Shown one piece after another: positions 4,788 to 51,906 of a stretch of DNA of 64,000 nucleotides. Source of the stretch: Escherichia coli (GTDB lineage: Bacteria > Pseudomonadota > Gammaproteobacteria > Enterobacterales > Enterobacteriaceae); the NCBI RefSeq assembly GCF_041886205.1, contig NZ_CP169029.1; one strand, 5' to 3'. Numbering within the stretch: the first letter of the stretch is position 1; every line of letters begins with the position of its first letter. The position numbers were made by a program, and so were the translations under genes. The notes below the pieces were generated by a model. It made no database searches and was not told where the DNA came from. It saw only the letters and a program-made list of their open reading frames with translations.

Positions 4788-6412
4788 GAGAATGTTCCTC
4801 CGGATGTTGTTAAACCAGCCGGTGTGGTCATGAAAACAACGCACCACCTTCACCGGCATAACAACCGGGGAGAAACGTAAAAAATAATCGGGAATGTGAC
4901 CGCCAGGAGATAAACGGGGAGGTTACGGTGGCTGAGCCGTACCGGTATGCCGGGTGGTTGTTACGAAACGATGCTTCCGCACGCGCGCGCGATAAAGAAG
5001 GGATGATTTTCGTGAGGAAGAGGGGAAAACTGGCGTTCTGATAATTGCAGAGTTATTTACGGGGCGGTTACGATGGGGCAGACCATGTCCGGTGGGCAGG
5101 CGACAGGTATCACCGATGGGATAAGACTGTCTGATTGGTATTATAAATATAAGAAGTTATCAGAGAGTAACGTAAAGGATTTGCCAGAATAACCTAAGAG
5201 AGTAAATCTCTCCGGTAACAGAGCGCTGTGAAGCATTCTGTATCAGAGTGCAAATACATGAACGCTGATGCGTAAAATCAGCAGTGACACGCCAGCTCCC
5301 CCTATGCCCATTCCTGTATAAGACATGAACTGAGCGTATTAATGCTCCTGCCCTGAAACTGAGCCGGTGAGTGAGGGGCTGAGAAATCCCTCTTGACACA
5401 GCTCTAACCAGAAATACTTCCCCGGTTGTTGCGGTGCGTCCGGATCCCCGATAACGGAACACTAAGGCTGTATTGCGGGACACCAGGTAAGTGGCAGCCC
5501 GTAATACGTCAGGAGACGCGGGAAAAGTGATTTCCCATACGCGTTATAAACTTACCCCTGCGGAGATGGAAGCCTTCAACTCTGCGGTCGATCACCGACT
5601 GGCAGAACTGACAATGAACAAGCTTTACGATCGTGTTCCCGCTTCAGTCTGGAAATATGTCATCTGAGCGTTCGGTAATCACAACTGCATCGCGCCAGGT
5701 GTTATCCGCTTTGTGATTCTTATTGGCTCTTCTCAGGTTATTAAAAGCTGAATATGTTCCTGTTGTCGGGAACTAGGATAATACCGGGAACGTTAAGCGG
5801 TATAGCGACAACAAAGAATTCGAAATCAAAAGGGAATGGTGTACGGAGGTGTAGGCGGTAATGGGCCGATTTTCGGGCATTACCGACCTCTGCTGAGGTT
5901 TTCTCGTATTTATCGGGGAGCTGGTGCGTTACTGTCACTGTCTGGCACAGCAAACGCAGAGGTGGCGGGGCGCTCTGCTCCGCTGACTCCGGCTAATCTC
6001 TCCCCTTTTACCTACTGCAACAGTACAAATACACTGACGCCTGAAATGACAGCCAGAATCAGCACAGGCAGTAACGTCAGTAGACAAAGCAGACGATCGG
6101 TATTTCGGTAATAATCGAAGGGATCTGCTGACACGTAGCCCGGGCAACATTCCGTATTATGAGGGATGGCGTTATCACAATCCCTGCACACCGTTTTGCG
6201 TATCACCATCACGTCCTCCTCACAATCTTATCCGTAACCGGCTTTTTGCATTAAAAAAACAACGCTGAAAATTCAGCCGTCAGTCCGGAGACGACAGTCG
6301 GGTTATCTCAGAGTGCCTGAGATATTGCCTGGTTGGAGATCACTTCAGGGACTCTGCGCATTTTTTACGGCGTGGTTAATCCGTATGAACGAAACCATAC
6401 GGAGATTTAACC

Positions 6413-8836: not shown

Positions 8837-9156
8837 TTTTGCGACATAACACACAAAAACAACACTCATGAAACAAAATGCCTTTATATGTTTTTATTTT
8901 GATGCATAATTGTTAATGACTATGAATGAGGGATGCAACACTATCGCATCTTCGGTTATTCCCTTAAATACTTACCTGCCATATGTCCGTATGGCAGGCT
9001 TTTTTCATTAACAGGCTTGCTGTTACATATCACTGTATTTCTCTTTTCCTTCCCTGTACTGCTTTTAGACTGGCCCCCTGAATCTCCAGACAACCAGTAT
9101 CACTTATTTAAGTGATAGTCTTAATACTAGTTTTTAGACTAGTCATTGGAGAACAG

Positions 9157-9521
9157 ATGATTGATGTCTTAGGGCCGGAGAAACGCAGACGGCGTACCAC
9201 ACAGGAAAAGATCGCAATTGTTCAGCAGAGCTTTGAACCGGGGATGACGGTCTCCCTCGTTGCCCGGCAACATGGTGTAGCAGCCAGCCAGTTATTTCTC
9301 TGGCGTAAGCAATACCAGGAAGGAAGTCTTCTGCTGTGGCCGCCGGAGAACAGGTTGTTCCTGCCTCTGAGCTTGCTGCCGCCATGAAGCAGATTAAAGA
9401 ACTCCAGCGCCTGCTCGGCAAGAAAACGATGGAAAATGAACTCCTCAAAGAAGCCGTTGAATATGGACGGGCAAAAAAGTGGATAGCGCACGCGCCCTTA
9501 TTGCCCGGGGATGGGGAGTAA
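9157..9521 (+). pseudogene. insC: IS2 InsC (OrfA) with a 1-bp deletion frameshift
   Basis: [58 protein letters not shown] then frame changes; the downstream ORF 9336..9521 carries the InsC C-terminus. The sequence reads GGAAGTCTT-CTGCTGTGGC at 9321-9340 where, from memory, canonical IS2 has one extra A. Confidence 0.75.
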
Positions 9522-10384
9522 GCTTAGTCAGCCGTTGTCTCCGGGTGTCGCGTGCGCAGTTGCACGTCATTCTCAGACGAACCGATGACTGGATGGATGG
9601 CCGCCGCAGTCGTCACACTGATGATACGGATGTGCTTCTCCGTATACACCATGTTATCGGGGAGCTGCCCACGTATGGTTATCGTCGGGTATGGGCGCTG
9701 CTTCGCAGACAGGCAGAACTTGATGGTATGCCTGCGATCAATGCCAAACGTGTTTACCGGATCATGCGCCAGAATGCGCTGTTGCTTGAGCGAAAACCTG
9801 CTGTACCGCCATCGAAACGGGCACATACAGGCAGAGTGGCCGTGAAAGAAAGCAATCAGCGATGGTGCTCTGACGGGTTCGAGTTCTGCTGTGATAACGG
9901 AGAGAGACTGCGTGTCACGTTCGCGCTGGACTGCTGTGATCGTGAGGCACTGCACTGGGCGGTGACTACCGGCGGCTTCAACAGTGAAACAGTACAGGAC
10001 GTCATGCTGGGAGCGGTGGAACGCCGCTTCGGCAACGAGCTTCCGGCGTCTCCAGTAGAGTGGCTGACGGATAATGGTTCATGCTACCGGGCTAATGAAA
10101 CACGGCAGTTTGCCCGGATGTTGGGGCTTGAACCGAAGAGCACGGCGGTGCGGAGTCCGGAGAGTAACGGCATAGCAGAGAGCTTCGTGAAAACGATAAA
10201 GCGTGACTACATCAGTGTCATGCCCAAACCAGACGGGTTAACGGCAGCAAAGAACCTTGCAGAGGCGTTCGAGCATTATAACGAATGGCATCCGCATAGT
10301 GCACTGGGTTATCGCTCGCCACGGGAATATCTACGGCAGCAAGCCAGTAATGGGTTAAGTGATAACAGGTGTCTGGAAATATAG
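9479..10384 (+). CDS. insD: IS2 InsD (OrfB) DDE transposase, 301 aa, apparently intact
   Basis: Full-length ORF with the integrase-core region (...[47 protein letters not shown]...). Confidence 0.9.
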
Positions 10385-10670
10385 GGGCAAATCCAGCTTT
10401 ATCGTCCGTGTGCTGGTGTTATATATGAGGGAAGCAGAGTTGTCGCCGGACCCAGTTCTGGTGTGCAGTGCTGCATTGTCGTAATGTCCGTGATTGATAA
10501 TCATGCTTCTTGTATAACGACAATGAGATGTCCGGGCTCAAATCATAATGTGGTCAGGGCGTCATCGCGAAAATTCGGTTATCATAAATACCTTTCGTTT
10601 TTTCCAGGGCTTTACAGGCAGACCAGTTGAAAAGCACCGTAATATCGAAAAGTAATAACTCTGGAGACAT

Positions 10671-10696
10671 AAAAAAGCCGGCGAAAAACGCCGGCA
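10671..10696 (-). terminator. rho-independent terminator on the minus strand
   Basis: Minus-strand reading GCCGGCG-ttttt-CGCCGGC followed by TTTTTT; the plus-strand reading lacks a T tract. Confidence 0.4.
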
Positions 10697-11863
10697 ATGA
10701 TCATAAACAAAAATAGGCTAATCCCTATGTGCCTTATCATTTTCCCACCATTTCATACAGAATTTCAAGCTGATATACAGAAAAAATAACATTGACTGGC
10801 GAAGCTGTGATAGAACTTAGAATGTATCAGAAAGAAATATTTTGTATGACAAAATGATGTGGCAGATATTAAGGTCGTACCAGCAGTAATTTCCTGTGCG
10901 GTCCGTACAGGAAGGAGTGTCATATATTCTTATTATGTGAATTAGCTCAATTATTAGAGAGATGTCTGTTATATATAATTTATCACAACACGGTGTATCC
11001 TGTATTGTATCAGGGCTAAGTGGCAGTTTGTACATAACCTGCAAAGGATTTGCTAAAGGCACCTCAAGGCGGACCATGGTTTGCCACACCAGTGGTCTAT
11101 CGGTAAAAATCCGACACCGTGTTGTTTTTTCTCTGTACTTTTATCTATAAATCACGAGTTGATGGTGTTTTTTTGCTTCATGAAGGAGGGCTGTGAGGTG
11201 TTTTAACTTTTCTTCGTGAAGTCAAATAGAGATATATAATTTATTCATGTGATAGAATTATGTTTACTGTTAACGGGTTATATTTTGATCCACTTGATCA
11301 AGAAAGGGTTATTGGATGGGGAGTGTATCGTAAATCCCCATGGGACCTTGTTGGTGTTTATCCGACAGAATATATAGCCAGGGAAAAAGCGGTATCATAT
11401 GGCTGCGATTATTTAGTATCACTGGGCCCTTATCGTATTGGCTCACATGATTTCAGACCATTCATGTCATATATATAAATCTGCGTCCTGATATTATCAA
11501 ATATTCCAAGTATAAATACACTCTGATTCAGTGATGACATTGTATATATTATGCATTGCCATGATATATGGATTACTCCTGACGGGTTATCTCCGGACAG
11601 CTGGTGTATCTGAATCTGGAGTGTAAAATACAGTAAATATGTGATTTAAACTCTGTAAAAAAATCCTGCCATACAGATGTATGGCAGGTAAGTGTCAGTT
11701 ACGCTGTAAATAAACATAATATCAGGTACAGCACACCTGATTTACGTCTGCGAAAAAAATTATGTATAGAAATGGAGGAATATAAAGGATTTGTTGTTGA
11801 TTTTATGTATTATGTCACAAAACTATGTATATTGTTGATAAATAATCAGGCTATGTTGAAGGT

Positions 11864-11926
11864 GCGTATTTTCATGAAAGGAGATCACTCAATACTCACC
11901 GATCTCCTTCACGGTAATACGCACTG
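11864..11926. repeat. copy 1 of an unclassified palindromic repeat (GCGTATTTTCATGAAAGGAGATCACTCAATA...CTCACCGATCTCCTTCACGGTAATA), with an internal 23-bp deletion
   Basis: Near-identical to 18491..18577 and 41536..41591; abuts the truncated 3' end of an IS66-family tnpC. Confidence 0.6.
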
Positions 11927-11999
11927 ACTCCGGTAATCCCCGTATTTCATCCTCGATGGCGTACTGTTCACTGATTCGCTTCAGGGCTTCTTCTGCCGT

Positions 12000-13100
12000 C
12001 TATACATCGTGGATTTTTCGCCGGGCATGGGCCCAGCACGCAACTTCTGTCAGTGCACCACCTTCACGTTCTGCACTGAACAACCTGTCGTAACCTGTGA
12101 ACGCATCCGCCTGCAGGATACCCCGGAAGGGGCGGAGGTGTTGCTCCGGGTATTTCCCCTGACGGTTCGGCGAGTACGCGAACCAGACCGCTGGAGGAGA
12201 TGACGAACCCACATTGCGATCATCCCGGACATACGTCCAGATACGCCCTGTTTTCGCCTTTTTCTGACCCGGTGCCAGTACCTTTACCGGTGTGTCATCA
12301 GTGTGAACCTTGCGGGTGTTCATTACATAACGGTACAGGGCATCATTCACCGGTGTCATTAACTGGCAGCACGCGTCAACCCAGTTGGAGAGTAAGGCCC
12401 GGCTCAGTTCGACACCCTGGCGGGCAAAGATTTCACTCTGACGATACAGTGGCAGATGTTCGCAGTATTTTCCCGTTAACACGCGGGCAAGTAATCCGGA
12501 GCCCGCGATACCACGCTCTATCGGGCGGGACGGCGCCGGTGCTTCAACAATACAGTCACATTTTGTACAGGCTTTTTTTACCCGTTCTGTGCGGATCACT
12601 TTCAGGGCACTGCTCACCAGTTCCAGCTGTTCAGCGCTGACTTCCCCCAGATAATCCAGCTCACCGCCACACTCCGGGCAACAGCTTTCTTCTGGCTCCA
12701 GGCGGTGTATTTCACGGGGAAGGTGTGCCGGTAACGGACGACGATGGCGCGACTGTCGCAACTGGCGGGGAACCTGAGGATCGTCTTCCCGCCCACTGTA
12801 ACGATCGCTGTCCTGTTCACGTTGTTTCAGCAGGGCCTCAGCCAGTTCAACTTCACGACGCAGTTTTTCAGAACGGGTACCGAACAGCATCCGGCGCAGT
12901 TTTTCTATCTGAGCCCGCAGATGTTCTATTTCCCGTTCATCTTCTTCGATCTTTTCTTCGGCACGTGTCAGTGCAGAGCGCAGGAAGGCTTCCGTCTCTT
13001 CAACCAGACTCAGTTGCTGGTCTTTCTGACGGAGGGCTTCAGCCTGCTCAGAGAGCAACCTTTCCAGCTCTGCGATGCGAATGAGGTATTTCTGACTCAT
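12000..13100 (-). pseudogene. tnpC: IS66-family TnpC transposase, C-terminally truncated (366 of about 520 aa)
   Basis: MSQKYLIRIAELERLL...CPECGGELDYLGE...[13 protein letters not shown] then premature stop; compare the full-length copies at 14608..16179 and 50332..51903. Confidence 0.8.
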
Positions 13101-13130
13101 GACCGTTTTTATAATGCGGTCAGGAGTTTT

Positions 13131-13481
13131 TTACAACATTGTCAGTGAGTTACGGCGGGATGTTTTTGGCTGACGCCAGTCCAGCTTATCGAGGAGCATT
13201 GCCAGTTGCGAGCGGGTAATGGATACCTTGCCGTCACGTACCGCAGGCCAGATAAACTGGCCTTCCTCCAGGCGTTTGGTGAACAGGCACAGACCATCAG
13301 CATCAGCCCAAAGAATTTTAACGGTGTCACCCCGTCGGCCACGGAAGATAAACAGGTGACCGGAGAAGGGATTATCATTCAGCACATGTTGTACCTGTTC
13401 TCCCAGTCCGTTGAAGGATTTACGCATATCGGTAACGCCGGCAACGAGCCAGATACGGGTACCTGATGGGAGTGAGATCAT
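13131..13481 (-). CDS. tnpB: IS66-family TnpB (Orf2)
   Basis: 116 aa, MISLPSGTRIWLVAGVTDMRKSFNGLGEQV...; start overlaps the tnpA stop. Confidence 0.85.
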   Translation of the reverse strand: MISLPSGTRIWLVAGVTDMRKSFNGLGEQVQHVLNDNPFSGHLFIFRGRRGDTVKILWADADGLCLFTKRLEEGQFIWPAVRDGKVSITRSQLAMLLDKLDWRQPKTSRRNSLTML

Positions 13482-13903
13482 CTTCCCCTCCCGGTCAGTT
13501 CACGGATCAACACCGTGAGCAGCTCTGGCGATGGATTTTCCAGCGTCATGTTACCGTGACGGAATTCCACCTTGCAGGAACTGGCACTGACTCTGGTCTG
13601 AGTGGAAGTGGATAAAGACGGCGCAATGGCCGCCACAGGTTCTTTCTGCTCATCCGGCGTTATTTCTACAGGTAATAATTCAACGCCAGTGTCAGAAGAG
13701 GTCTTTACCGGAAGACGCCGCGAAACACGCCCTTCGTTCTGCCAGAGCCTGAGCCATTTGAAAATAACATTATCATTGACGCCATTTTCACGTGCAATCT
13801 GTGCAACACAAGCTCCAGGTTGTGATGCCAGTTCCACCATACGAAGTTTGAATTCATTCGAATAGTTTTTACGAGGTTCTTTTCGCCAGTCCTGTAATTC
13901 CAT
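13478..13903 (-). CDS. tnpA: IS66-family TnpA (Orf1)
   Basis: 141 aa with HTH region ...ASQPGACVAQIARENGVNDNVIFKWLRLW... Confidence 0.85.
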   Translation of the reverse strand: MELQDWRKEPRKNYSNEFKLRMVELASQPGACVAQIARENGVNDNVIFKWLRLWQNEGRVSRRLPVKTSSDTGVELLPVEITPDEQKEPVAAIAPSLSTSTQTRVSASSCKVEFRHGNMTLENPSPELLTVLIRELTGRGR

Positions 13904-13990
13904 ACTTAGATGTCCGTCTATATCAGATGGGCGTCTAAGTTACCAATTCTCGTCTGATGGCTACATACGGCGGTCAGTTTACGCTTACAC

Positions 13991-14211
13991 AACAATGGCG
14001 CGAGGGAAAGCTGCTATTACCTTCTTCAGAGAGCCCCCAGCTACTTCCTGTGACTCTTGATGCAGTTGCCGAACAGCCAGAATCGCTCGCAGAGGACCCG
14101 GAAACCCTCAGTATCAGTTGTGAGGTAACGTTCCGGCACGGGACGCTCCGCTTCAATGGCAATGTCAGCGAAAAGCTCCTGACTCTGCTGATACAGGAAC
14201 TGAAGCGATGA
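13991..14211 (+). pseudogene. tnpA: IS66-family TnpA, C-terminal fragment only
   Basis: Matches the C-terminal 73 aa of ORF 25092..25493 (...[54 protein letters not shown]). Confidence 0.8.
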
Positions 14212-14558
14212 TCCCGTTACCTTCCGGGACCAAAATTTGGCTGGTTGCCGGTATCACCGATATGAGAAATGGCTTCAACGGCCTGGCTGCGAAAGTACAA
14301 ACGGCGCTGAAAGACGATCCCATGTCCGGCCATGTTTTCATTTTCCGGGGCCGCAGCGGCAGTCAGGTTAAACTGCTGTGGTCCACCGGTGACGGACTGT
14401 GCCTCCTGACCAAACGGCTGGAGCGTGGGCGCTTCGCCTGGCCGTCAGCCCGTGATGGCAAAGTGTTCCTTACGCAGGCGCAGCAACTGGCGATGCTGCT
14501 GGAAGGTATCGACTGGCGACAGCCTAAGCGGCTGCTGACCTCCCTGACCATGCTGTAA
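14208..14558 (+). CDS. tnpB: IS66-family TnpB
   Basis: 116 aa [31 protein letters not shown]...; ATGA overlap with tnpA. Confidence 0.85.
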
Positions 14559-14607
14559 ATCTCTTTATCCTGGTTGTCACAGAATAAGCCCGGTAAAATA
14601 CGGGCTT

Positions 14608-16179
14608 ATGAACGACATTTCTTCTGACGACATCTTCCTGCTGAAACAGCGCCTGGCCGAACAGGAAGCGCTGATCCACGCCCTGCAGGAAAAGCTGAGC
14701 AACCGGGAGCGCGAAATAGACCATCTGCAGGCGCAGTTGGATAAACTCCGCCGGATGAACTTCGGCAGTCGTTCCGAAAAAGTCTCCCGCCGTATCGCAC
14801 AAATGGAAGCCGATCTGAACCGGCTTCAGAAAGAGAGCGATACGCTGACTGGTAGGGTGTATGACCCGGCAGTACAGCGTCCGTTGCGTCAGACCCGCAC
14901 CCGTAAGCCGTTCCCTGAATCACTACCCTGTGACGAAAAGCGACTGTTGCCTGCGGCGCCGTGCTGCCCGAACTGCGGCGGTTCACTGAGCTATCTGGGC
15001 GAGGATACCGCCAAACAGCTGGAGTTGATGCGTAGCGCCTTCCGGGTTATCCGGACGGTACGGGAAAAACATGCCTGTACTCAGTGCGATGCCATCGTGC
15101 AGGCACCTGCACCTTCGCGGCCCATCGAGCGGGGTATCGCCGGACCGGGGCTGCTGGCCCGCGTGCTGACCTCGAAGTATGCAGAGCACACCCCGCTGTA
15201 TCGCCAGTCAGAAATATACGGCCGGCAAGGTGTGGAGCTGAGCCGTTCACTGTTGTCGGGCTGGGTGGATGCATGCTGCCGGCTGCTGTCTCCGCTGGAA
15301 GAGGCGCTTCATGGCTATGTCATGACTGACGGCAAACTCCATGCCGATGATACCCCGGTCCAGGTACTGCTGCCGGGTAATAAGAAGACGAAGACCGGGC
15401 GGTTGTGGGCGTATAAGAAGACGAAGACCGGGCGGTTGTGGGCGTATGTTCGTGATGACCGCAATGCCGGGTCAGCGTTGGCACCTGCAGTGTGGTTCGC
15501 TTACAGCCCGGACAGAAAAGGCATCCATCCGCAGACTCATCTTGCTTGCTTCAGCGGTGTGCTGCAAGCGGATGCGTACGCCGGGTTCAACGAGCTGTAT
15601 CGCAATGGTGGGATAACGGAAGCTGCCTGCTGGGCTCATGCCCGCCGAAAGATCCACGATGTGCACGTCCGCATCCCGTCAGCACTGACGGAAGAAGCCC
15701 TGGAGCAGATCGGTCAGTTGTACGCCATAGAGGCGGATATAAGGGGAATGCCGGCAGAGCAGCGGCTTGCTGAACGTCAGCGAAAAACGAAACCGCTGTT
15801 GAAATCCCTGGAAAGCTGGTTGCGTGAAAAGATGAAGACCCTGTCGCGACACTCAGAGTTGGCGAAGGCGTTCGCGTACGCACTTAACCAGTGGCCGGCA
15901 CTGACGTACTATGCGAACGATGGCTGGGTGGAAATCGACAACAACATCGCTGAAAATGCCCTGCGGGCGGTCAGTCTGGGTCGTAAAAACTTCCTGTTCT
16001 TCGGCTCTGACCATGGTGGTGAGCGGGGAGCGCTACTGTACAGCCTGATCGGGACGTGCAAACTGAATGACGTGGATCCAGAAAGCTACCTTCGCCATGT
16101 GCTTGGCGTCATAGCAGACTGGCCGGTCAACCGGGTCAGCGAACTGCTTCCGTGGCGCATAGCACTGCCAGCTGAATAA
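14608..16179 (+). CDS. tnpC: IS66-family TnpC transposase (523 aa) carrying an in-frame 33-bp tandem duplication
   Basis: Full-length ORF with the CPNCGGSL zinc-ribbon-like motif; [11 protein letters not shown] is repeated twice (15382..15447). Confidence 0.85.
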
Positions 16180-16351
16180 CACATCCCCGTCAATACGGCC
16201 CTCGCTGTACGCTTACGAGTAAGATTTCTTAAAAAATATAACAATAACAAAAAATTGAAATATATCACAAAAAAATCAATATACCCCTTATAAGGCCTGG
16301 ATGACTGTACAGCATGTATATGCCAGAAAACCGGTTTATGTGAATCAGGGT

Positions 16352-17086
16352 TTACCCGTCACCAGTTGTGTCCTTAATACCATACTGTTTTAACCACTGA
16401 CAGGGAGTGACTGAGTAGTATTTTCTGAAACTTAAAATAAAATACGACAGACTGCTATATCCGCACTCTCTAGCGACAATAAAAATGTTAGCATTCCCGC
16501 ACTTCATCAGAGTTATTGCCTTTTTCATACGTACTTCTGTGATTATCCGGCTGAATCCTGCGCCTTCACTGTGCAGTTTTCTTTTAAGCTGACTGGCACT
16601 TATACATAACGCTGATGCAACATCTGACAGATACCATTTCTTTGCCGGCTCTGCGGCAACAATAGCTTCAACACGTAACGAGTAGTTATTCAGCCCACCG
16701 GACAATACAGGCAGCAACTGGTTTTTATCATTAAGATAATCCAGCAGCACAAATAATACTGACTCATAAAGGTTAGTATTTTTCTGTTGTTCCACAAGTG
16801 ACATCAGCGAGTTCAGAAAGGTACCATACGCTTTCTTTCTGAAAAAAGAATTTTTCCTGTCAGTGATGCATAACGCATCGGCATCCCTCAGTCTGATATA
16901 CAGATAGTCGCTGATGATATGACAGGGTATATCAATAAACCTCACACATCCTTCACAGGCATCCGTAATATACTGAATGTCATTTCTTTTAAGAAAGAGA
17001 ATTTCATTCCGGGCAAAATCAAGCTCTTCATTGTAAAATGAAGCACAGAATGGCCTCACTATAATGGCAAAACAATACGGAAACAT
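16352..17086 (-). CDS. AraC-family transcriptional regulator (Rns/CfaD-like, AT-rich gene)
   Basis: 244-aa ORF with a C-terminal AraC-type HTH (...YLSDVASALCISASQLKRKLHSEGAGFSRIITEVRMKKAITLM...GYSSLSYFILSFRKYYSVTPCQW...). Confidence 0.7.
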   Translation of the reverse strand: MFPYCFAIIVRPFCASFYNEELDFARNEILFLKRNDIQYITDACEGCVRFIDIPCHIISDYLYIRLRDADALCITDRKNSFFRKKAYGTFLNSLMSLVEQQKNTNLYESVLFVLLDYLNDKNQLLPVLSGGLNNYSLRVEAIVAAEPAKKWYLSDVASALCISASQLKRKLHSEGAGFSRIITEVRMKKAITLMKCGNANIFIVARECGYSSLSYFILSFRKYYSVTPCQWLKQYGIKDTTGDG

Positions 17087-17241
17087 ACAGTACAGGTGTT
17101 ATTTAGAAATATCCGGTATTTTTCTTATTATAGCTGACAGACTTACTTCCTGACATTATATTAAGAAGTTCGATTTTATTATTAAAGTAACCGGACAAAA
17201 TACAGTCCGGTCACCGTGGTTATACGCGCATATAAATGTTA

Positions 17242-17871
17242 TCAGTCACCTTCATTCAGGCTGACAGTATCCGTAATCACACCATCTTCTGCACCTTTCA
17301 GTGCAAGATTGGCTTCGTAGTATTTCCCTTCGCTCATTAATTTTTGCGCACTGTTAACCTTTTTCTGCGTCTGTTTTAATGGCATCAGCCACTGCGTTTC
17401 TGAAATATCAATTCCGGCGAGATGCAGTACGTCAATTGCTCCTTTTTTGTCACCTTTATCCAGTTTTTTATTGGCCTCATCAATAGCTTTCTGTTTTTCC
17501 GGGGTGACAGTAAAGTCTTCAGACAACATTAAGCTGCTGTTAATAATAATGTAGACATCGCCTTCCTGTGGTGTTTTTTTATCCTTGCGGACAACTGTTT
17601 CCCATGTTTTATCATCAGATTTAAGCAAATCTTCAGCCCGGTTTATCAGCTTATCTGCTGCTCCTGTGTCACCACTGAATAAGGCAAGACGTGCATACTG
17701 CATGTCATCCATAATTTCCATACCACGCTGTTCTGCCTTCAGACTCCTTTCTGATAAAACTGTCTGAGCCTCATTTTTTGTGGATGAAGTGTTTTCTGAA
17801 GTTGCTGAGGCCATTGCGACAGCAGAGGTCAGGGACAGAGCGATTGCTACAGCATTAAAGATATGTTTCAT
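17242..17871 (-). CDS. yfdX: YfdX-family periplasmic protein
   Basis: 209 aa with signal peptide MKHIFNAVAIALSLTSAVAMA and a conserved C-terminal ...SEGKYYEANLALKGAEDGVI... region. Confidence 0.7.
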   Translation of the reverse strand: MKHIFNAVAIALSLTSAVAMASATSENTSSTKNEAQTVLSERSLKAEQRGMEIMDDMQYARLALFSGDTGAADKLINRAEDLLKSDDKTWETVVRKDKKTPQEGDVYIIINSSLMLSEDFTVTPEKQKAIDEANKKLDKGDKKGAIDVLHLAGIDISETQWLMPLKQTQKKVNSAQKLMSEGKYYEANLALKGAEDGVITDTVSLNEGD

Positions 17872-18490
17872 ATTTTTTACTCCGACATCAGGCAGAAAGA
17901 ATCATACCTGATAATAAACATAATATGATTTTCCCCCTGACGATTAGTCATATACTCAGGAAGCCGGACAAGGATGTCCCCCTCCCGGACATTTATATTC
18001 CCCTATCCGGCATGCATATTTTATGTTCTGCAACTGATATAAGAAATCTGACCACTTACCCCCACACAAAAAATAAATACCGAACCGGTAATATCACAAT
18101 ACATCATTATAAAATTATATTTATGTTACCAGTAATTTTTATGCCATCACAAGCCCAAAAAATCATTAATAACCCACCCCGCTCCATGCAAATAAAAGAA
18201 AATACATTTCACATGAAATACCATGATATATATATTGCCCGGAGTGATGGTGTTTTTATGAAGCAATTTAAATAATACAGATAACTGTAATTTATCATTC
18301 AGACGAAGAGATTTGATTTACACGGTAAGAGCATATGGCACATTACAACAGGGGTCTCTGTGAATATATACAGAAAACATATCTCATAAAACCCGGGAAA
18401 TGCCCCATGAATACAGGACAGTGAAAACAGGCATGATAATCAGGAAAGCCATGCCTGATACAGAAAAAGTTACCTGCGGGGATAATGCAT

Positions 18491-18577
18491 GCGTATTTTC
18501 ATGGAAGGAGATCACTCAATAACTTCCATCGAGAGCGGGTAATAACTCACCGATCTCCTTCACGGTAATAAGCAATG
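18491..18577. repeat. copy 2 (most complete) of the unclassified palindromic repeat
   Basis: GCGTATTTTCATGGAAGGAGATCACTCAATAACTTCCATCGAGAGCGGGTAATAACTCACCGATCTCCTTCACGGTAATAAGCA; the arms AAGGAGATC and GATCTCCTT can pair. Confidence 0.6.
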
Positions 18578-18622
18578 CACAACCAGGCACTTACTGGCCG
18601 GTTATCCATGTCTATATTATAT

Positions 18623-18850
18623 TTACATCACGTCAGTTTTCATAAAGGCTGTGAACAGCCAGTAAATCAGGCCACTGAATACCAGCCACAGCACAACTAG
18701 GGCTGCAACCCTCACAGGGATATCACACTCTTCCGGCACTTTTTCCACAGCCATACTGCACAGATGGACTGTCATAACAGAAATCATCACAACAGCAAGG
18801 ATATGAATGAAAAGAAAAACGACTTTCATTTTCCGGAAATGCATATACAA
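18623..18850 (-). CDS. small hydrophobic (membrane) protein, hypothetical
   Basis: 75-aa ORF with two predicted transmembrane stretches; no family recognised. Confidence 0.25.
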   Translation of the reverse strand: MYMHFRKMKVVFLFIHILAVVMISVMTVHLCSMAVEKVPEECDIPVRVAALVVLWLVFSGLIYWLFTAFMKTDVM

Positions 18851-19162
18851 ACCCTGACTCAGCCTGTCCTGTCTTTCCTGATCCTCTGTAATCTTAACTT
18901 ATCCATGCGCTGACGAAGTCTGCCCGGAACACGCCCGCTCTTTCTTGAAATATGAGCACAGATAAAATCTTCAAGCAGAAAATGCATGTCCTGCATTACC
19001 ACATCTTCTTTTTTGTCTTTCACTGAAAAATGCCTGACAAAATCGCTCATGAAAATGTTTCTGAAACGCTGTTATCCAGCTTCAGAAACCGGTACTGCCT
19101 TCACCAACACAAATCATTTTGTTGTCACTGTCTGACCTGTTCTCCCCTCCCGGAACTCGCTG

Positions 19163-20197
19163 TTACTGATAGGAAAATGTAAATGTTGATATTCCGTTAA
19201 CCGTACCCGGATTAATTCCCTCACCAGTATTCACATACTTTACATACAACCGGACTGAGGGTGACGTTTCCGTTCCTGTTGATAACTGCCACTGGTTTTC
19301 ATTTCCCTTTACCGGCGAATCAGGTCCAAACTTCAGGGGCGTACTGTCAGTGTTTTTGTATATTCTCAGCCCGACTCCGGTTGCAGTCGATGCCCCCGTC
19401 AGTGTGAGTATATCGCTTCTGTTGGACGGTGTGGTCGCATCAGTCAGTGTTGCCCATACTGTTACTCCGGCATCACACTGTAATTTCAGTGATGTTGTCC
19501 CGGCGACAACTTCATCACCGGATGATGGCAGTTGTCCGGCAGAAATTGCAGCCAGGCTGACATTGACTGCGGAAGGTGTCAGTAATCTGCACGATGTTAC
19601 TGTGTCATTCAGCGTAAATGGATTCAGGCTGAAATTCACTGTGGTCTGAACACTGCCTGCAGATGAACCGTTATAGGGCCTCATTCTGATACTCCCGATG
19701 CTGGTCTTCTGTACACTGTATCGCGCAGAGGAATTTCTTTTTAAAATTACAGGTGTTACACGAACAGACAGTCCCTGGGTTGATGCAGTATTAGCTCCGA
19801 CACACCATCCGGAAAAGACATTTTCCCATGAGTTTCCGCTCATCGCGGTACCCCTGGAATAATTCGTGTCCCCCATCCATATAAGGAGCCCCACCTCCTC
19901 TGTCAGCCCATAAATACTCTGCCCGTCAAGACTGCCAACCACGGGTAAATCCACTTTCCCGTCCAGCCCGACACAAAATCCCTTAGAAATACGCCAGACA
20001 TTTGCATTCTGATATCCAATGTTGTTACCGGTATTATAGACAAATGGCAGGTTATCCATTGCATGAGTTCTGGAATAAGAGCCTGGAGATGGTCCCACAT
20101 CGTTTTCCGTACTGCCAATAAATGAAACTGCCGCCTGACTGATATTGCAGCAAACCAGAATGAATACAGCCAGAAAGACCTTATAAAAATTTGTCAT
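19163..20197 (-). CDS. fimbrial tip adhesin, F17-G-like two-domain adhesin (344 aa)
   Basis: Signal peptide, then an N-terminal lectin-like domain and a C-terminal pilin domain; last gene of a major pilin/chaperone/usher/adhesin operon. Confidence 0.7.
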
Positions 20198-20198
20198 A

Positions 20199-22736
20199 TT
20201 ATTGCCTCATGCATACTACATGATGGTTTTCCGGAACAGCATTTCCCCTGGCATTTTCTCCGGACGCACTATAGTGAATGACACAACTGTCATTCTGCCC
20301 GCTTCCCCAGACTATCCTGAGCATCCCTTTTTCAGCATCCAGGTCACGTACAAATAACCGGCCTCCCTGAGCAATGTAGCCTGCAGATTTCCCGTCTGCT
20401 GTTAATGCTTCCGCGGCCATCGGCGGCGGCGTTCCGTCCGGCATCTTCACATCAAACAACATGGCTTTCCCCGTTTTTGTTGTGAAGGTCACCATGGTGG
20501 TACTGTTGGCCCGGGGAATAATTTCCCGCTCTGTTGCAGACAGTTCCACATCCGCAGCCAGCGCTGTCGGGTCGATACTGATATAATTCTTTTCGTAAGG
20601 TGTGACATACGGAACAATGCCGTTACCCCAGGGGTCCAGCCGGTTACCCGGCGCATTATTAATCACCGCCCCACCGGCACCATCAGCATGAATAACGGTA
20701 AATGTGTCACCAAGGTCATTACTGGCCGTCACACCAAACGGATGCGCCACTATTGCCCCGGATATACCGGCAGATATCTGACGGTTATGGCGACTGTCAT
20801 TCCCTGCCGTGGCCTGCAGGGTGGCCACCGGTGAACGATAACTGCCATTCACCGCATACCCTGTCGGTCCGTTTTCCTGGGTGTTCAGGGACACACCATA
20901 TGACAACTGATTGTCATCCCCGCTGACACCACTGATACTGCTCTGAATGCTGTTACTGTTTTTATCGCTGACATTCACTGTCGTGGACAGCAACGTCCTT
21001 CCCGTATCTGAAAGTGGCAGGGAAAAACTGAAAAAGAACCGGTTATCATGATGATAATCACCACTCCGTCGGGTCTGGGAAAAGCCAATCTGGTAACTCA
21101 TTTTTTTCCAGACGTTGTTATAACCGGCCTGGTACTCATTGAATGTCCCTGTATGTCCCCAGTAATGATAAGTGGCTCCGGTCAGATACAGGTTTCCCCA
21201 TCCCTCACCAAGACTCTGGTTCACAGTCAGTTGCAACTGATTCCTTGGCCGGTAACCAGTTGCACTCCTGACCGATGAATCATTAATCACATCACGATTC
21301 CTGGTCAGGATGGCATCCCGAAGACTCCAGAAGTCACGGGATGAATAACGGTAAGCCGCCAGCGTCACATTTGTACTGGTTTCCGGTATTCGTGCACTGT
21401 AACCGGCATGCAGGCTGTAGCCGCGATGTGTCGTGTCAGAACCCGGGAAAGTCGTTCTGGCCAGCGTAATATCCGTGGCAACAGCCCCCAGTGGTGTATT
21501 GAATGCCACACCACCCAGCCCTGACAGATAATGAGGTGCGGTACTCATCCCCGTATTCAGGGTGATATCATTTGTCAGCCCGTACTGCAGGGTCCCCTGG
21601 AATACGGTATCGCTGAATGTCCTGTTACCGTAACGATAACGCCCGGCTGCCACCTGCCAGCGACTGAACCCCGGGCGAACCAGTTGTGCAACCGAAGCAA
21701 ACGGCACGATAAAACTCCTGGTCTGTCCGTCTGACTCTGTCACAGTGACTGTCAGGTCACCACCATATCCACTGGGATAAAGGTCACTGATGGAGAAAGG
21801 CCCTGCCGGCACGGTAGTTTCATAAATAATGTTACCGTTCTGCCGGACAGTAACCCTGGCGTTACTTCCGGCCATCCCCCGAACCACAGGGGCATAACCA
21901 CGCAACGAACCCGGCAGCATCCGGTCATCAGAAGCCAGTCTTATTCCCCTGAGGCTGTTACTGTCCATAAGCTCACCTGTGGTGGTGAAATCCCCCAGTG
22001 TCAGTTGCGCACGCAACATGGCTATGTCGTGCTGAAGGTTCGTTTCAATACTCCGGTAACCTTCTGCATGACCGTCACTCCAGCTTTCTGTCCCCCGGTG
22101 ACGAAATGCCCAGCCTCCTGCGTTAAAGCCGGCACGAAGACCAAGATAACTCTGATTATTTTCCATATCGGGCGTCCGGTAACGCCAGTGATTCACGTCA
22201 TAACTGACAAAGGCAGCCGGCACCCCCGTCTGCCACTGAGAAGGTGATATGTATCCCCGTGGACGGGAAACCAGCATGGCCTGCGGAATTTCAACATTCA
22301 GCCGCAGCAGTGACAGGTCAAAACGGATTTTGGCATCAGGTACAACTGCAGAAAATGGCATGCAACGACCATTTCCGGTATCCGGTTCACGGGCAACGGC
22401 CTCGGGTGACACATCCAGAATGGATAACAGTTCCGGCGTCACACACAGAACACTCTCCTCCTGTGAAGAGGACATATCACGGAATGACAATTCCGCATTT
22501 CCTTTCCATTCACCGTTCAGATAAATGTCTGAATAATAATTCCCTGAGGGAACAGGATTCCCGTGCGTGAAACGACGGACATCAATCACACTGCTCCCTG
22601 GCGTGCGGCTCAGAAAACTCGGGTCAAATTCTGCATCCTCTGCCGCCCACAAAGGCGCAGACAGCATATAAAGTCCCGGCAGACAACATAAATAAATGAC
22701 ACGATATTTCAGACCGGATAAAGAATAATGACTCAC
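20199..22736 (-). CDS. fimbrial outer-membrane usher (845 aa)
   Basis: Size and position between the chaperone and adhesin genes; typical usher length. Confidence 0.85.
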
Positions 22737-29553: not shown

Positions 29554-30892
29554 CATAAGCGCTAACTTAAGGGTTGTGGTATTACGCCTGATATGATTTA
29601 ACGTGCCGATGAATTACTCTCACGATAACTGGTCAGCAATTCTGGCCCATATTGGTAAGCCCGAAGAACTGGATACTTCGGCACGTAATGCCGGGGCTCT
29701 AACCCGCCGCCGCGAAATTCGTGATGCTGCAACTCTGCTACGTCTGGGGCTGGCTTACGGCCCCGGGGGGATGTCATTACGTGAAGTCACTGCATGGGCT
29801 CAGCTCCATGACGTTGCAACATTATCTGACGTGGCTCTCCTGAAGCGGCTGCGGAATGCCGCCGACTGGTTTGGCATACTTGCCGCACAAACACTTGCTG
29901 TACGCGCCGCAGTTACGGGTTGTACAAGCGGAAAGAGATTGCGTCTTGTCGATGGAACAGCAATCAGTGCGCCCGGGGGCGGCAGCGCTGAATGGCGACT
30001 ACATATGGGATATGATCCTCATACCTGTCAGTTCACTGATTTTGAGCTAACCGACAGCAGAGACGCTGAACGGCTGGACCGATTTGCGCAAACGGCAGAC
30101 GAGATACGCATTGCTGACCGGGGATTCGGTTCGCGTCCCGAATGTATCCGCTCACTTGCTTTTGGAGAAGCTGATTATATCGTCCGGGTTCACTGGCGAG
30201 GATTGCGCTGGTTAACTGCAGAAGGAATGCGCTTTGACATGATGGGTTTTCTGCGCGGGCTGGATTGCGGTAAGAACGGTGAAACCACTGTAATGATAGG
30301 CAATTCAGGTAATAAAAAAGCCGGAGCTCCCTTTCCGGCACGTCTCATTGCCGTATCACTTCCTCCCGAAAAAGCATTAATCAGTAAAACCCGACTGCTC
30401 AGCGAGAATCGTCGAAAAGGACGAGTAGTTCAGGCGGAAACGCTGGAAGCAGCGGGCCATGTGCTATTGCTAACATCATTACCGGAAGATGAATATTCAG
30501 CAGAGCAAGTGGCTGATTGTTACCGTCTGCGATGGCAAATTGAACTGGCTTTTAAGCGGCTCAAAAGTTTGCTGCACCTGGATGCTTTGCGTGCAAAGGA
30601 ACCTGAACTCGCGAAAGCGTGGATATTTGCTAATCTACTCGCCGCATTTTTAATTGACGACATAATCCAGCCATCGCTGGATTTCCCCCCCAGAAGTGCC
30701 GGATCCGAAAAGAAGAACTAACTCGTTGTGGAGAATAACAAAAATGGTCATCTGGAGCTTACAGGTGGCCATTCGTGGGACAGTATCCCTGACAGCCTAC
30801 AAAACGCAATTGAAGAACGCGAGGCATCGTCTTAACGAGGCACCGAGGCGTCGCATTCTTCAGATGGTTCAACCCTTAAGTTAGCGCTTATG
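29554..30892 (+). mobile_element. IS186 (IS4 family), 1339 bp, with a 10-bp target-site duplication GGAACTATCC
   Basis: Terminal inverted repeats CATAAGCGCTAACTTAAGGGTTG (29554) and CAACCCTTAAGTTAGCGCTTATG (ending 30892); GGAACTATCC at 29544-29553 and 30893-30902; the cdiA frame is restored across the insertion. Confidence 0.9.
29609..30721 (+). CDS. insL: IS186 transposase
   Basis: 370-aa product MNYSHDNWSAILAHIGKPEELDTSARNAG... from the ATG at 29609. Confidence 0.9.
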   Translation: MNYSHDNWSAILAHIGKPEELDTSARNAGALTRRREIRDAATLLRLGLAYGPGGMSLREVTAWAQLHDVATLSDVALLKRLRNAADWFGILAAQTLAVRAAVTGCTSGKRLRLVDGTAISAPGGGSAEWRLHMGYDPHTCQFTDFELTDSRDAERLDRFAQTADEIRIADRGFGSRPECIRSLAFGEADYIVRVHWRGLRWLTAEGMRFDMMGFLRGLDCGKNGETTVMIGNSGNKKAGAPFPARLIAVSLPPEKALISKTRLLSENRRKGRVVQAETLEAAGHVLLLTSLPEDEYSAEQVADCYRLRWQIELAFKRLKSLLHLDALRAKEPELAKAWIFANLLAAFLIDDIIQPSLDFPPRSAGSEKKN

Positions 30893-37683: not shown

Positions 37684-37809
37684 TTGAGAATAACTACCTC
37701 AGCTACGACGAGGCGCATGCTTTTGACAGAGAAATGACGGCCTGTCGTAAAGCGGGTGGAGACTGTGGCGATATTCAGAATAAATATGCTGTATTAAGCG
37801 CAGAGAACC
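37684..37809 (+). pseudogene. remnant duplicate of the 5' end of orphan cdiA-CT 1, closed by a TAG
   Basis: 37684-37806 matches 35656-35778 ([45 protein letters not shown]) then TAG. Confidence 0.7.
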
Positions 37810-39588: not shown

Positions 39589-41380
39589 GTGTGCCGGGCA
39601 TGTTCAGCAGCTCGGGGGTGAAAGTCCCCTGTCCAGCCTGATGGTGGCGAAGGACTAGCGAAGCGCAAGGGCGTCGTCGTAAGGCGGGGTCTGAAGGAAG
39701 CGTGAAGCAAATCCATGACCTGACGAACAGAAATCCGATACGAGGCCTACCCGGTTGGCGGAGCAAGCAAAGAATTGCGAAGGCCATAACCATCAAGAAC
39801 CGGGGGGTAAATCGGACAGGTGTGTGGTGAAGGCGTCTGAACTTACCCCGGGAGGCCTGTCCGTCGTTCTGTATCTAGAACTTAGCGTACCGTAAGGGGC
39901 GCTGACCGGCGGACAGGAGTCAGCAGAGGGCATAGTAGGGCATGACACCCGAAGGCCCGAACGGTAATGAGTGACGAGTATCAACGGAGGTTCTGAACGG
40001 TCATGCAGCAGAAAACGCATCGCGCCCCTGAGGCCGGAGAACGGGGTGAAGCCCCGAACGCCGCCCTTCCGGGGGCTGAAACCGTGCAGGCACCGACGAA
40101 CAGAGAAAGTCCGTCGTCAACAGTGTGGCTGATGGAAGCCATTTGTGAACCAGTCAATCTCAGGCAAGCCCTGAAAAGAGTTAAAGCCAACAAAGGTGCA
40201 GCGGGAGTCGATGGTATGCGCGTAAGCGAACTGCCGGACTACCTGAGGCACCACTGGCCAGAGCTGAAAGCGCAACTACTGTCTGGCAGATACCGCCCAT
40301 CTCCTGTGAGAAGAGTGTCCATACCGAAGCCCGGCGGCGGCGAACGTCTGCTGGACATCCCGACGGTGGTGGATCGCTTCATCCAGCAGGCGATGATGCA
40401 GGTATTGCAGGGGCACTGTGGGATAGCTCGTTCAGCGATAACAGCTACGGGTTCCGTCCCGGTCGTTCGGCCCACCAGGCAGTGATACAGGCCCGGGAAC
40501 ATATCGGGGCCGGGTATCACTGGGTGGTCGACCTCGATCTGGAGAAGTTCTTCGACCGGGTAAATCACGATGTGCTGATGAGCCGGATAGAGAAACGAGT
40601 ATCGGATAAACGGGTGTTGTCACTTATCCGCAGGTTCATGAATGCAGGGGTGATGGACGCAGGTCTGGTAAGGCCGGTGACAGAAGGAACGCCGCAGGGC
40701 GGCCCACTGTCGCCGCTGCTATCGAACCTGCTGCTTGACGACCTCGACAAGGAACTGGAGAAACGTGGTCTGAAGTTCGTGCGGTACGCAGACGACTGTA
40801 ATGTCTACGTGAAAAGCGAACGGGCAGACAACCGGATCATGGCGGGGTTGACGCACTGGCTGAGCCATAAACTGAAGCTGAAGGTCAACGCGAAGAAGAG
40901 TGCTGTAGCACGCCCTGAAACGCGCAAGTTCCCTGGATACAGCTTCATAAGGGGGCGGAAGGTATGGTGCGTGGTATCGCCGGAGTCGATAAAACGGTTC
41001 AAAATGCGGATAAGAGCACTGACCGGACGCAACACAGGGAGAAGCCTTGAACAGCTAACCCGGTTGCTAAAACGATATCTGACGGGCTGGAAAAGTTACT
41101 ACGGGCTGAACCAGAGGCCATCGCTGATGCGAGAGCTGAACGGATGGATAAGGCGCAGTCGAGGCGTAAGCAAGGACCTTGCGGCGCAAACAGCAGGAAG
41201 CTGCCATAAAGAGTGGCGGATAAGCTGTAGTCCGGCACTGAATATAGCACTCCCCAATAATCTGTTCTCCAGACTGGGCCTGCCAGAAGTATAGGCAGGC
41301 GACGATCAACATAACCGAACCGCCGTATACGGCCCCATACGTACGGTGGTGTGGGAGGAAGCTGATCGTGAGATCAGCTC
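39589..41380 (+). mobile_element. bacterial group II intron (about 1.8 kb) with a frameshifted intron-encoded protein
   Basis: 5' GTGTG at 39589; internal ORFs encode reverse-transcriptase motifs including the YADD box; a domain V-like hairpin (ACCGCCGTATACGG...ACGTACGGTGGT) lies near 41318-41350; the 3' boundary is approximate (about 20 bp either way). Confidence 0.7.
40003..41294 (+). pseudogene. group II intron reverse transcriptase/maturase split into two ORFs by a frameshift
   Basis: ORF 40003..40485 ends ...QGHCGIARSAITATGSVPVVRPTRQ while the next frame reads SSFSDNSYGFRPGRSAHQAVIQAREHIG... and continues into ORF 40482..41294, which carries ...FVRYADDCNVYV... Confidence 0.75.
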
Positions 41381-41956: not shown

Positions 41957-43444
41957 TCACCCGGAGAAGGTAAATCCCTCAAGAGGCAGCAACTCTGCCA
42001 GTCGCTCCTCCGGCCACTCCGGCAGACGCATCAGGACGTCTGTCAGCCAGGCATGCGGCTCCAGACCGTTGCGTTTCGCGGTTTCCAGCAAGCTCATTAT
42101 TTGCGCGGCGCGTTCTCCTGCCATCTGCGAACCGGCGAACAGCCACGATTTTCTGCCCAGGACCACGTTTTTGATGGCCCGTTCACACACATTATTATCC
42201 AGCGGCACCGCACCATCTTCCAGGAAGCGGCTTAGTTCCACGCGATGAGACAGCGCATAGACAATGGCTTTGTGTAATGCCCTTCCCGGAGAACATTGCG
42301 GTTCCTGCTCTTCAAGCCATGACCACAGATCTTCCAGTATCGGACGGGCATAACGCTGTCGCCACTGGCGGATTTTTTCCACGGGGCGGCTACTGATCTT
42401 CTTCTCAAGACGGTACAACCCCGCGATTTTCTTCACGGCGATGGCAGCCCGTGGATCTTTACTGATTTTATACAGGTCGGCGAAGCCCCTGCGGGCATGG
42501 GACCAGCATCCGGCCAGCGTGATCTCCGGCACTTTGTTTGCCAGAGTCCGGTAAGCTTTATGTCCGTCGACAACCAGCGTCCCGCCCCAGCCCTGAAGCC
42601 AGTTTTCAGGATACTCATGGCTACGTCCGGTCCGGCAGTTGAAGCACACAACTGACGGTCCCGTCCTTTCTCCACTGACGTATGCCCACAGATAACCGGA
42701 GCAGGATTTACCGCCTTTCTTCGTGTTCAGGAGCTTCAGGGTAGTCTCATCTGCATGCACCACCGGACGGTTTATCAACTCGCGATGGAGTAACGCCGCC
42801 AGGGGAGATAATGCGGCACCCGCCGCGCCAACCATGTCAGCCATCGAACTGACGGGAAGCCCGACATCTGAACGGGCAAAGACCTGTTGCTGGCGATACA
42901 GAGGCAGGTGGTCACCGTATTTATTGATGATCACCTGTGCGATGACTGATGGCTCAACGGCACTTTTCGGGAGGATATGTGCCGGCATTTCACCGCTGAA
43001 CACCTTCTGGCAACAGGGACAACTGTATTGCGGACGGACATAACAGTTCACCACGAAGTGAGCGGGAATATACTCCAGCTTTTCACTCACCGCATCACGG
43101 ATATAGTGCAGCGGCTCGTCACATTCAGGGCAATGGTCAGTGTCCGGCTGGATAATTTTTTCCACCCGTGGAAGATGAGCCGGTAAGGATTTGCGTATCG
43201 GGCGTGAACGGGACGCTTTTTCGTCTTCTTCAGGGGATTGCGGGAGCAGTTTATCCAGATGTGCGGTAAGCGCGGCGATATCGACATCAACATCCTCTTC
43301 GAACAGGGAGCGTTGCATACCAGCCAGCGTTTCACATTTTTTACCGAAGCGCTGTTGACGAACCAGTTTCAGCATTTCTTCCAGAAGCTGGATGCGCCGG
43401 CTTTTCTCCAGTAATTCCCGCTCTTTTTCGGCATTCTCCGACAT
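41957..43444 (-). CDS. tnpC: IS66-family TnpC transposase (495 aa)
   Basis: MSENAEKERELLEKSRRIQLLEE...CPECDEPL...DGAVPLDNNVCERAIKNVVLGRKSWLFAGS... Confidence 0.85.
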   Translation of the reverse strand: MSENAEKERELLEKSRRIQLLEEMLKLVRQQRFGKKCETLAGMQRSLFEEDVDVDIAALTAHLDKLLPQSPEEDEKASRSRPIRKSLPAHLPRVEKIIQPDTDHCPECDEPLHYIRDAVSEKLEYIPAHFVVNCYVRPQYSCPCCQKVFSGEMPAHILPKSAVEPSVIAQVIINKYGDHLPLYRQQQVFARSDVGLPVSSMADMVGAAGAALSPLAALLHRELINRPVVHADETTLKLLNTKKGGKSCSGYLWAYVSGERTGPSVVCFNCRTGRSHEYPENWLQGWGGTLVVDGHKAYRTLANKVPEITLAGCWSHARRGFADLYKISKDPRAAIAVKKIAGLYRLEKKISSRPVEKIRQWRQRYARPILEDLWSWLEEQEPQCSPGRALHKAIVYALSHRVELSRFLEDGAVPLDNNVCERAIKNVVLGRKSWLFAGSQMAGERAAQIMSLLETAKRNGLEPHAWLTDVLMRLPEWPEERLAELLPLEGFTFSG

Positions 43445-49024: not shown

Positions 49025-49317
49025 CGAAAGGACGAACTTTTCTAAGGGCTTTTTTCCTTAAGTGGGGCTTGGATATTCGGAGTGGATTGTATTTAAAACG
49101 AATATCCAAGCAATCAAACTCTAGTCTACAAAACACATAAATTCATGCACGTATCCATCCATGCTGTAGATAATCAGCTGTGATAATAGCAGCCGCTACT
49201 GAAGCAATTGAATGGAAAGCGTCGTCTTTTGTGCGTAACCGGCTCATTTAAACCGTCTGGTCTGTTTCCTCCGGCTCTACAAAAATAATGTCCATCATTT
49301 TTAATGGACACTATCGT

Positions 49318-49536
49318 ATGAAACACCGGACCTGGATCACTGAAGCTTTACGTCTTCACTTTGAAGAACATTTACCCCGGGTTGTGGCCGGGCGTCGCCT
49401 GGGTGTACCAAAATCAACAGTTTGTAGTATGTTCGTGCGCTTTCGGAGAGCTGGCCTTTCGTGGCCTTTGCCCGCAGGCATGTCGGAGCAGGAACTTGAT
49501 GCCTGCCTTTACGGACAATTTTCCACGGTACCAGTC
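49318..49536 (+). pseudogene. possible N-terminal fragment of an IS21-family IstA-like HTH, read in frame with the next tnpA
   Basis: MKHRTWITEALRLHFEEHLPRVVAGRRLGVPKSTVCSMFVRFRRAGLSWPLPAGMSEQELDACL resembles IS21-family IstA N-termini; it lies inside ORF 49288..49965. Confidence 0.35.
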
Positions 49537-49572
49537 GTACGTCCTGAAAGCACCGTTATATCCGAAGCCCCC

Positions 49573-50312: not shown

Positions 50313-50331
50313 CCCGTTGTAAAGTGAGGAT

Positions 50332-51903: not shown

Positions 51904-51906
51904 ATA

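Follow-up and report, generated by a model that had tools for sequence, protein, structure and literature searches.

An open reading frame for an IS66-type transposase, TnpC, carries the same 33 bp twice in immediate succession in the 64-kb stretch of DNA analysed here (hereafter, the window). This raises the question of where the doubling came from, that is, whether it belongs to the insertion sequence in general, was produced by an assembly or arose at this one locus, and whether it alters the transposase. In our assessment, with a probability of roughly 80%, it is a genuine, lineage-restricted 33-bp tandem duplication that arose in place, most likely by slippage or template switching, in the tnpC of an ISEc8 copy by then unable to move.

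The 33-bp repeat and its borders

By direct reading, the 33-bp unit (AAGAAGACGAAGACCGGGCGGTTGTGGGCGTAT) is present at 15382-15414 and 15415-15447 in identical, head-to-tail copies, and Tandem Repeats Finder reported a repeat at 15380-15447 (period 33, 2.1 copies, 100% matches, score 136), the sole one with a period above 15 in the window. Both results agree with the preliminary description of this DNA, which had claimed a perfect in-frame 33-bp tandem duplication of 11 TnpC residues. The duplication lies in frame within the open reading frame 14608-16179 (+ strand, 523 aa), of which 11 residues are doubled, and a search of both strands of the window found no copies of the unit besides those at 15382 and 15415. 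The borders are defined by the following features:

15380-15381, + strand: AT dinucleotide before copy 1, which recurs at 15413-15414 and 15446-15447 (2-bp border microhomology)
15382-15414, + strand: copy 1 of the 33-bp unit, TnpC residues 259-269, a looped-out hairpin extension in the AlphaFold2 model
15415-15447, + strand: copy 2 of the 33-bp unit, TnpC residues 270-280, predicted by AlphaFold2 to form the canonical beta2 strand of the DDE domain

The period-33 identity extends over 68 bases of the window (15380-15447), owing to the AT found both ahead of copy 1 and at the end of each copy. The unit opens with AAGAAGACGAAGAC, in turn a short and imperfect repeat, which encodes the Lys-rich turn. 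A perfect 33-bp tandem repeat by chance in 64 kb is excluded, the expectation being, by our own estimate, ~64,000 x 4^-33.

An ISEc8 remnant next to an ISEc23-like element

The preliminary description placed the duplication in the tnpC of an IS66-family element, an assignment that holds and can be narrowed to ISEc8, with ~99% identity to annotated copies (in thousands of E. coli genomes, DNA annotated as "IS66-like element ISEc8 family transposase" is 99.0-99.5% identical). The element and its neighbour are composed as follows:

11916-13988, - strand: ISEc23-like IS66-family element, head-to-head with ISEc8, with tnpA (13478-13903), tnpB (13131-13481) and a truncated tnpC
13957-14211, + strand: chimeric 84-aa ORF, with its start codon in the ISEc23-like terminal repeat and the C-terminal part of ISEc8 TnpA as the remainder
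13989-16216, + strand: all ISEc8-derived DNA (2,228 bp), as delimited by alignment with canonical ISEc8
14208-14558, + strand: ISEc8 tnpB, IS66 accessory protein, intact (116 aa)
14608-16179, + strand: ISEc8 tnpC, 523 aa versus the usual 512, with LZ_Tnp_IS66, zf-IS66, DDE_Tnp_IS66 and DDE_Tnp_IS66_C domains
16187-16216, - strand: intact right inverted repeat of ISEc8, whose reverse complement is GTAAGCGTACAGCGAGGGCCGTATTGACGG

Canonical ISEc8 is an IS66-family element of 2,442 bp with the genes tnpA-tnpB-tnpC and an 8-bp target duplication; the copy in the related locus L005 (2,442 bp, target duplication GATAAAAC, repeats beginning GTAAGCGTACAGC) was used as the reference. With the duplication set aside, the window is ~99% identical in nucleotides to canonical ISEc8 over 13989-16216, and the two have tnpB, tnpC, the right inverted repeat (GTAAGCGTACAGCGAGGG...) and the four Pfam domains of TnpC in common. 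Unlike the canonical element, the window copy is 250 bp shorter on the left, has a 3-bp indel in tnpB and contains the 33-bp duplication (523 versus 512 aa), so that its 2,228 bp correspond to the canonical 2,442 bp minus the left end, plus the duplication and the tnpB indel. Compared with three ISEc8 copies, tnpC shows a handful of SNPs in addition to the 33-bp insertion.

Profile searches gave a consistent picture of which genes are preserved. TnpC matched PF13007, PF13005, PF03050 and PF13817, with E = 2e-105 for PF03050 (DDE_Tnp_IS66), whose match is interrupted by the duplication and so falls into two stretches, and reached 452 bits against NCBIfam NF033517 (IS66 transposase; cut-off 180). 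TnpB scored 116 bits against NF033819, and the 84-aa tnpA remnant scored 29 bits, below the NCBIfam cut-offs (74). Thus, in the tnpA-tnpB-tnpC operon, tnpB and tnpC are intact and tnpA persists as an 84-aa C-terminal remnant from which the N-terminal HTH part was deleted. RefSeq gives 512-aa copies the name "IS66-like element ISEc8 family transposase" but the 523-aa variant, in the ZYB39 record, just that of "IS66 family transposase"; apparently, the duplication takes TnpC outside the element-specific naming rule, and automatic names can thus become less specific when a conserved domain contains a duplication.

The window lacks the first 250 bp of ISEc8 and, with them, the left inverted repeat and the start of tnpA. 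Since the left repeat is deleted and the ISEc8 sequence starts at 13989 inside tnpA, we consider this copy a remnant and not a complete element; inverted repeats beginning GTAAGCG are not present at both ends, as the right repeat ends at 16216 and the left one is gone. Without its left inverted repeat and 5' tnpA, the remnant is unable to move on its own, and hence, with neither a left end nor a complete TnpA, the duplication has no consequence for its own mobility. The native promoter region of ISEc8 is also deleted, and no sigma-70-like promoter was found upstream of the remnant. From 16217 on, the sequence is homologous to F17 loci without ISEc8.

The left-end deletion can be followed in related sequences. 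The two elements meet within 13950-13995 of the window, where the terminal base of the ISEc23-like element (13988) adjoins the ISEc8 deletion endpoint. On plasmid pO145-13516 (NZ_CP006263.1, L011; positions 4900-5200), ISEc23 and ISEc8 abut head-to-head as in the window but, unlike the window, ISEc8 tnpA is complete and the duplication is absent; there, the ISEc23 end takes the place of roughly 14 bp at the outer edge of the ISEc8 left repeat. In the window and in CE0026f (NZ_CP119000.1), a further 236 bp of ISEc8 are deleted, starting exactly at the ISEc23-like terminus, which looks like an IS-mediated adjacent deletion. CE0026f has the same head-to-head arrangement and the identical deletion endpoint as the window, with a 512-aa TnpC and no duplication; it differs in that its right flank consists of autotransporter genes instead of F17 and in that its ISEc23-like tnpA is interrupted by a further IS66-family element. 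The ZYB39 annotation gives the truncated ISEc23-like tnpC of the window (11916-13100, - strand) an internal stop and no C-terminus.

The window contains four IS66-family elements, including the ISEc8 remnant, the ISEc23-like element and ISCro1. The statement of the preliminary description that the other TnpC proteins of the window have the segment once was found to be correct for three IS66-type TnpC homologues, which belong to different IS66-family elements (58%, 33% and 61% identity to the 523-aa TnpC) and are not ISEc8 copies. On the - strand, at 41957-43444, there is a 495-aa tnpC ORF of a distant IS66-family element, whose counterpart in ZYB39 is annotated with an internal stop.

Distribution of the duplicated allele

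The duplicated allele was traced with a junction probe, a 44-mer across the border between copy 1 and copy 2 that matches only where the duplication exists. Of 5,426 complete E. coli genomes it matched one, that of ZYB39, a bovine strain from China; it was absent from 72,556 plasmids and, searched as a pattern, from 100,044 species-representative genomes. ISEc8-like DNA was present at 29,643 places in 4,390 genomes when complete E. coli genomes were searched. The three junction searches led us to reject the idea that the doubling is a general property of ISEc8; the preliminary description had itself raised the possibility that reference copies all carry the doubled segment, and the single match among the 5,426 complete genomes speaks to the contrary.

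Seventeen public contigs from many assemblies, including two complete genomes, encode a protein identical to the 523-aa TnpC (WP_137455365.1 in the record of ZYB39) under several independent NCBI accessions, and the underlying DNA always has the perfect tandem repeat. The carriers have a common locus order, namely the ISEc23-like element, truncated ISEc8, an AraC-like gene, yfdX and the F17 fimbrial operon, as observed individually at eight places and, for the other nine, from an automatic grouping by neighbouring genes, most of which were shared. Among the 17 contigs the allele was not found at a second insertion site. With all 17 occurrences at one locus, we have no evidence for a mobile variant. 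Host information was available for two carriers, both bovine. The junction is a highly specific marker for one ISEc23/truncated-ISEc8/F17-fimbria locus in a small E. coli group. An apparent further in-frame duplication in the protein cluster, in a 541-aa member, turned out to be a longer start call, and a literature search for this duplicated allele (IS66/TnpC/DDE, ISEc8) returned nothing relevant.

For the single-copy state, the duplication was collapsed in silico and the resulting 512-aa TnpC was looked up as an exact sequence. Two contigs, L012 and L013, encode it, again at the F17-linked locus; they may come from one isolate, with the assembly GCA_043802035.1 and the read set SRR31093896, and thus may constitute one observation. 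Relative to the window, they differ by the 33 bp and one SNP (14587A>C) over 8.7 kb, and six duplication-carrying loci show 0-4 differences from the window over up to 8.9 kb. Locus L007 (GCA_020037375.1) has the duplication on a flank that is ~98.4% identical (93 differences in 5.7 kb), with different F17G and usher alleles.

The duplication in the TnpC catalytic domain

A library-wide homologue search retrieved 48,396 relatives of TnpC. In an alignment of 108 full-length sequences, Asp247 is invariant, and Asp322 and Glu449 are at least 90% conserved (numbering of the variant); we infer that these three residues form the DDE triad of TnpC. The duplication begins 12 residues past Asp247, in the beta1-beta2 hairpin of the RNase-H-like DDE domain.

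AlphaFold2 models were obtained for both forms of the protein:

Collapsed, 512 aa: mean pLDDT 93.4; beta1 243-255, a 4-residue turn, beta2 260-271
Variant, 523 aa: mean pLDDT 91.7; beta1 243-254, a 17-residue loop 255-271 (pLDDT of the block 65-81), beta2 272-282, formed by the second copy

All other elements of the variant model are unchanged and confident. Copy 2 is thus predicted to act as beta2 while copy 1 loops out with the fold intact, although AlphaFold2 is insensitive to destabilising changes and this intactness is a prediction only. The variant TnpC is most likely a folded protein with an enlarged hairpin tip.

No sequence-level relative of TnpC was found in the PDB. Among solved folds, Foldseek gave as the closest ones the ISCth4 transposase (6xg8, 6xgx), the P element and Hermes transposases (E = 6e-7, probability 1.00), which confirms, as a fold class, that the TnpC model consists of an RNase-H-like DDE core with an alpha-helical insertion domain. 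As in ISCth4 (IS256 family), the P element and Hermes, the insertion domain of the model is located between the second Asp and the Glu. ISCth4 nevertheless belongs to a different family, and its 12% sequence identity and TM-scores of 0.4-0.5 indicate fold class, not family membership.

The site of the duplication is variable in length by nature. Of 107 diverse homologues, 101 have a spacing of 18-22 residues from Asp247 to a conserved Trp in beta2, and the other six have one of 24-40; in the variant it is 31. The homologues with longer spacing have Lys-rich, partly repetitive inserts at this site, and the natural range of 18-40 residues implies that the hairpin tolerates length variation. The family representatives P0152, P0135 and P0139 have long Lys-rich or repetitive inserts (for example, MKKMKKMKKTKTKKKTKK) exactly at the beta1-beta2 hairpin, which hints that slippage-type expansions have occurred repeatedly in this loop within the IS66 family. 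As a naturally length-variable site, the IS66-type beta1-beta2 hairpin may be useful for the study or engineering of TnpC.

Origin of the duplication and alternative explanations

Slipped-strand mispairing and microhomology-mediated template switching constitute a general mutational class that generates short in-frame tandem duplications. The window case resembles slippage-type duplications in its perfect head-to-tail copies, short border microhomology, length in multiples of three and the existence of a single-copy allele at the locus, and shows nothing unusual in comparison; its microhomology is just 2 bp and no hairpin-forming potential was detected. In fact, a duplication driven by hairpins or secondary structure was rejected, as the ssDNA folding of 15360-15470 is no better than that of shuffled sequences (z = -0.66). 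Replication would have slipped, or switched templates, from one AT dinucleotide to another at a distance of 33 bp. The 2-bp AT microhomology is weak evidence when taken by itself, and sequence cannot prove the mechanism. Still, replication slippage, already named as likely in the preliminary description, is supported by the perfect copies, the microhomology, the absence of foreign DNA and the single-copy version at the same locus.

All duplication carriers lack the left end of ISEc8, and so does CE0026f, whose tnpC contains no duplication; by parsimony, the loss of the left end would have preceded the duplication. The sequence of events starts with an ISEc23-like element coming against the left end of ISEc8, an arrangement still seen on pO145, and continues with a deletion from the ISEc23-like terminus, seen in the window, by which ISEc8 lost what remained of its left repeat together with the start of tnpA; it would finish, in the order suggested by parsimony, with the 33-bp duplication in the copy adjoining the F17 fimbrial operon. 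The best reading of the duplication is that of ordinary mutational variation in a decaying IS remnant. It is probably a neutral marker that travels with the F17 island; the loci, with 0-4 differences in ~9 kb, are too similar for a selection test.

The age of the duplication is the point on which the data allow two accounts, since the SNP pattern inside ISEc8 is mosaic and therefore yields no reliable tree with which the two could be separated. A single gain, with L012 and L013 in the ancestral state and L007 a recombinant, would fit the data, and so would an earlier gain, with L012 and L013 having later lost the extra copy precisely. In its full form, the latter holds that the duplication arose once in the ancestor of all F17-linked ISEc8 remnants and that L012 and L013 are precise revertants, produced by recombination or slippage between the copies. 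Tandem duplications are lost at high rates, which makes such reversion plausible, and two comparisons point in the same direction: L007 has the duplication on a clearly diverged flank, with its 93 differences in 5.7 kb, and the one SNP that separates L012 and L013 from the window is their own. On the other hand, the flank of L007 may owe its divergence to recombination of the F17 operon and not to age, the mosaic SNPs deprive the argument of a reliable tree, and L012 and L013, if from the same isolate, count once. We regard this older origin as possible, although on balance doubtful.

Two further explanations concern the reality of the doubling and its function. That a spurious 33-bp doubling was introduced by sequencing or assembly in one genome would be in line with the single occurrence among RefSeq complete E. 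coli genomes, but the identical 523-aa product is found on 17 contigs, from complete genomes and drafts, with the perfect repeat in the DNA, and the window differs from ZYB39 in IS content and hence is a further independent sequence. With the protein on 17 contigs, two complete genomes among them, an assembly artefact can be dismissed, its probability being practically negligible. The single non-trivial reading that remains, which we consider very improbable, is that the 523-aa TnpC is a functionally altered transposase kept for acting in trans on other ISEc8 copies, for example through a dominant-negative effect or changed DNA contacts. In its favour, all 17 contigs have an intact tnpC ORF, the duplication leaves the leucine zipper and the zinc finger at the N-terminus unchanged, AlphaFold2 predicts that the fold persists, catalytic Asp247 is near the insertion, and a canonical ISEc8 inserted in yfdX of the carrier L005 indicates an ISEc8 active in the lineage. 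These points lose weight when set against the near-identity of the loci, which makes ORF integrity uninformative on selection, the deleted native promoter region with no sigma-70-like promoter upstream, and the rarity of the allele and its confinement to one locus. It would be surprising, then, if the Lys-rich 11-residue extension by Asp247 altered DNA contacts or poisoned mixed transposase assemblies and TnpC, expressed from the immobile remnant, so modulated the transposition of other ISEc8 copies in the F17 lineage.

The F17 island and its IS elements

The closest complete genome to the window is that of ZYB39 (NZ_CP098234.1). We rejected the possibility that the window is strain ZYB39 itself, as the two are collinear at 99.9-100% identity but differ by three IS-sized events. 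ZYB39 has an extra IS100 of 1,950 bp at about window position 10650 (10647-10656). The window has, relative to ZYB39, a 1,337-bp insertion at 29555-30891, inside a frameshifted hemagglutinin-repeat (CdiA-like) gene. ISCro1 (IS66 family, 2.7 kb) is at 49234-51933 in the window and, in ZYB39, in the opposite orientation at the equivalent of ~37795 (37791-37798). These differences point to recent IS traffic in the island.

Locus L005 (CP184825.1) contains at 9153-11594 a second, canonical ISEc8 (2,442 bp, 512-aa TnpC) inside yfdX, flanked by the 8-bp duplication GATAAAAC, at the equivalent of window positions 17753-17760; the target duplication around this copy implies that ISEc8 is still active in the lineage. 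When L007 was compared with window positions 13912-22168, the duplicated tnpC was seen tied to a different F17 operon variant (347-aa F17G, ~98-99% identity, alignment gap at 19647-20233), which suggests that allelic exchange may have occurred within the F17 cluster beside a conserved IS remnant. At F17 loci without ISEc8, such as that of BN01, IbrB-like and PAPS-reductase-like genes are present where the IS elements sit.

According to the ZYB39 annotation, the window also encodes, with ~40482-41294 and ~54466-55410 as the segments of note, a reverse-transcriptase-domain protein, a CBASS oligonucleotide cyclase with WYL-domain and nucleosidase neighbours, CDI toxin/immunity remnants and a ~1,650-aa AAA-domain protein. 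This gene content suggests a putative defence or competition island around the F17 locus. Beside the right end of ISEc8, the AraC-type regulator (16352-17086, - strand) is a 244-aa ORF in the window and has 197 or 150 aa in other carriers; in L005 this gene has a 1-bp deletion at 16842.
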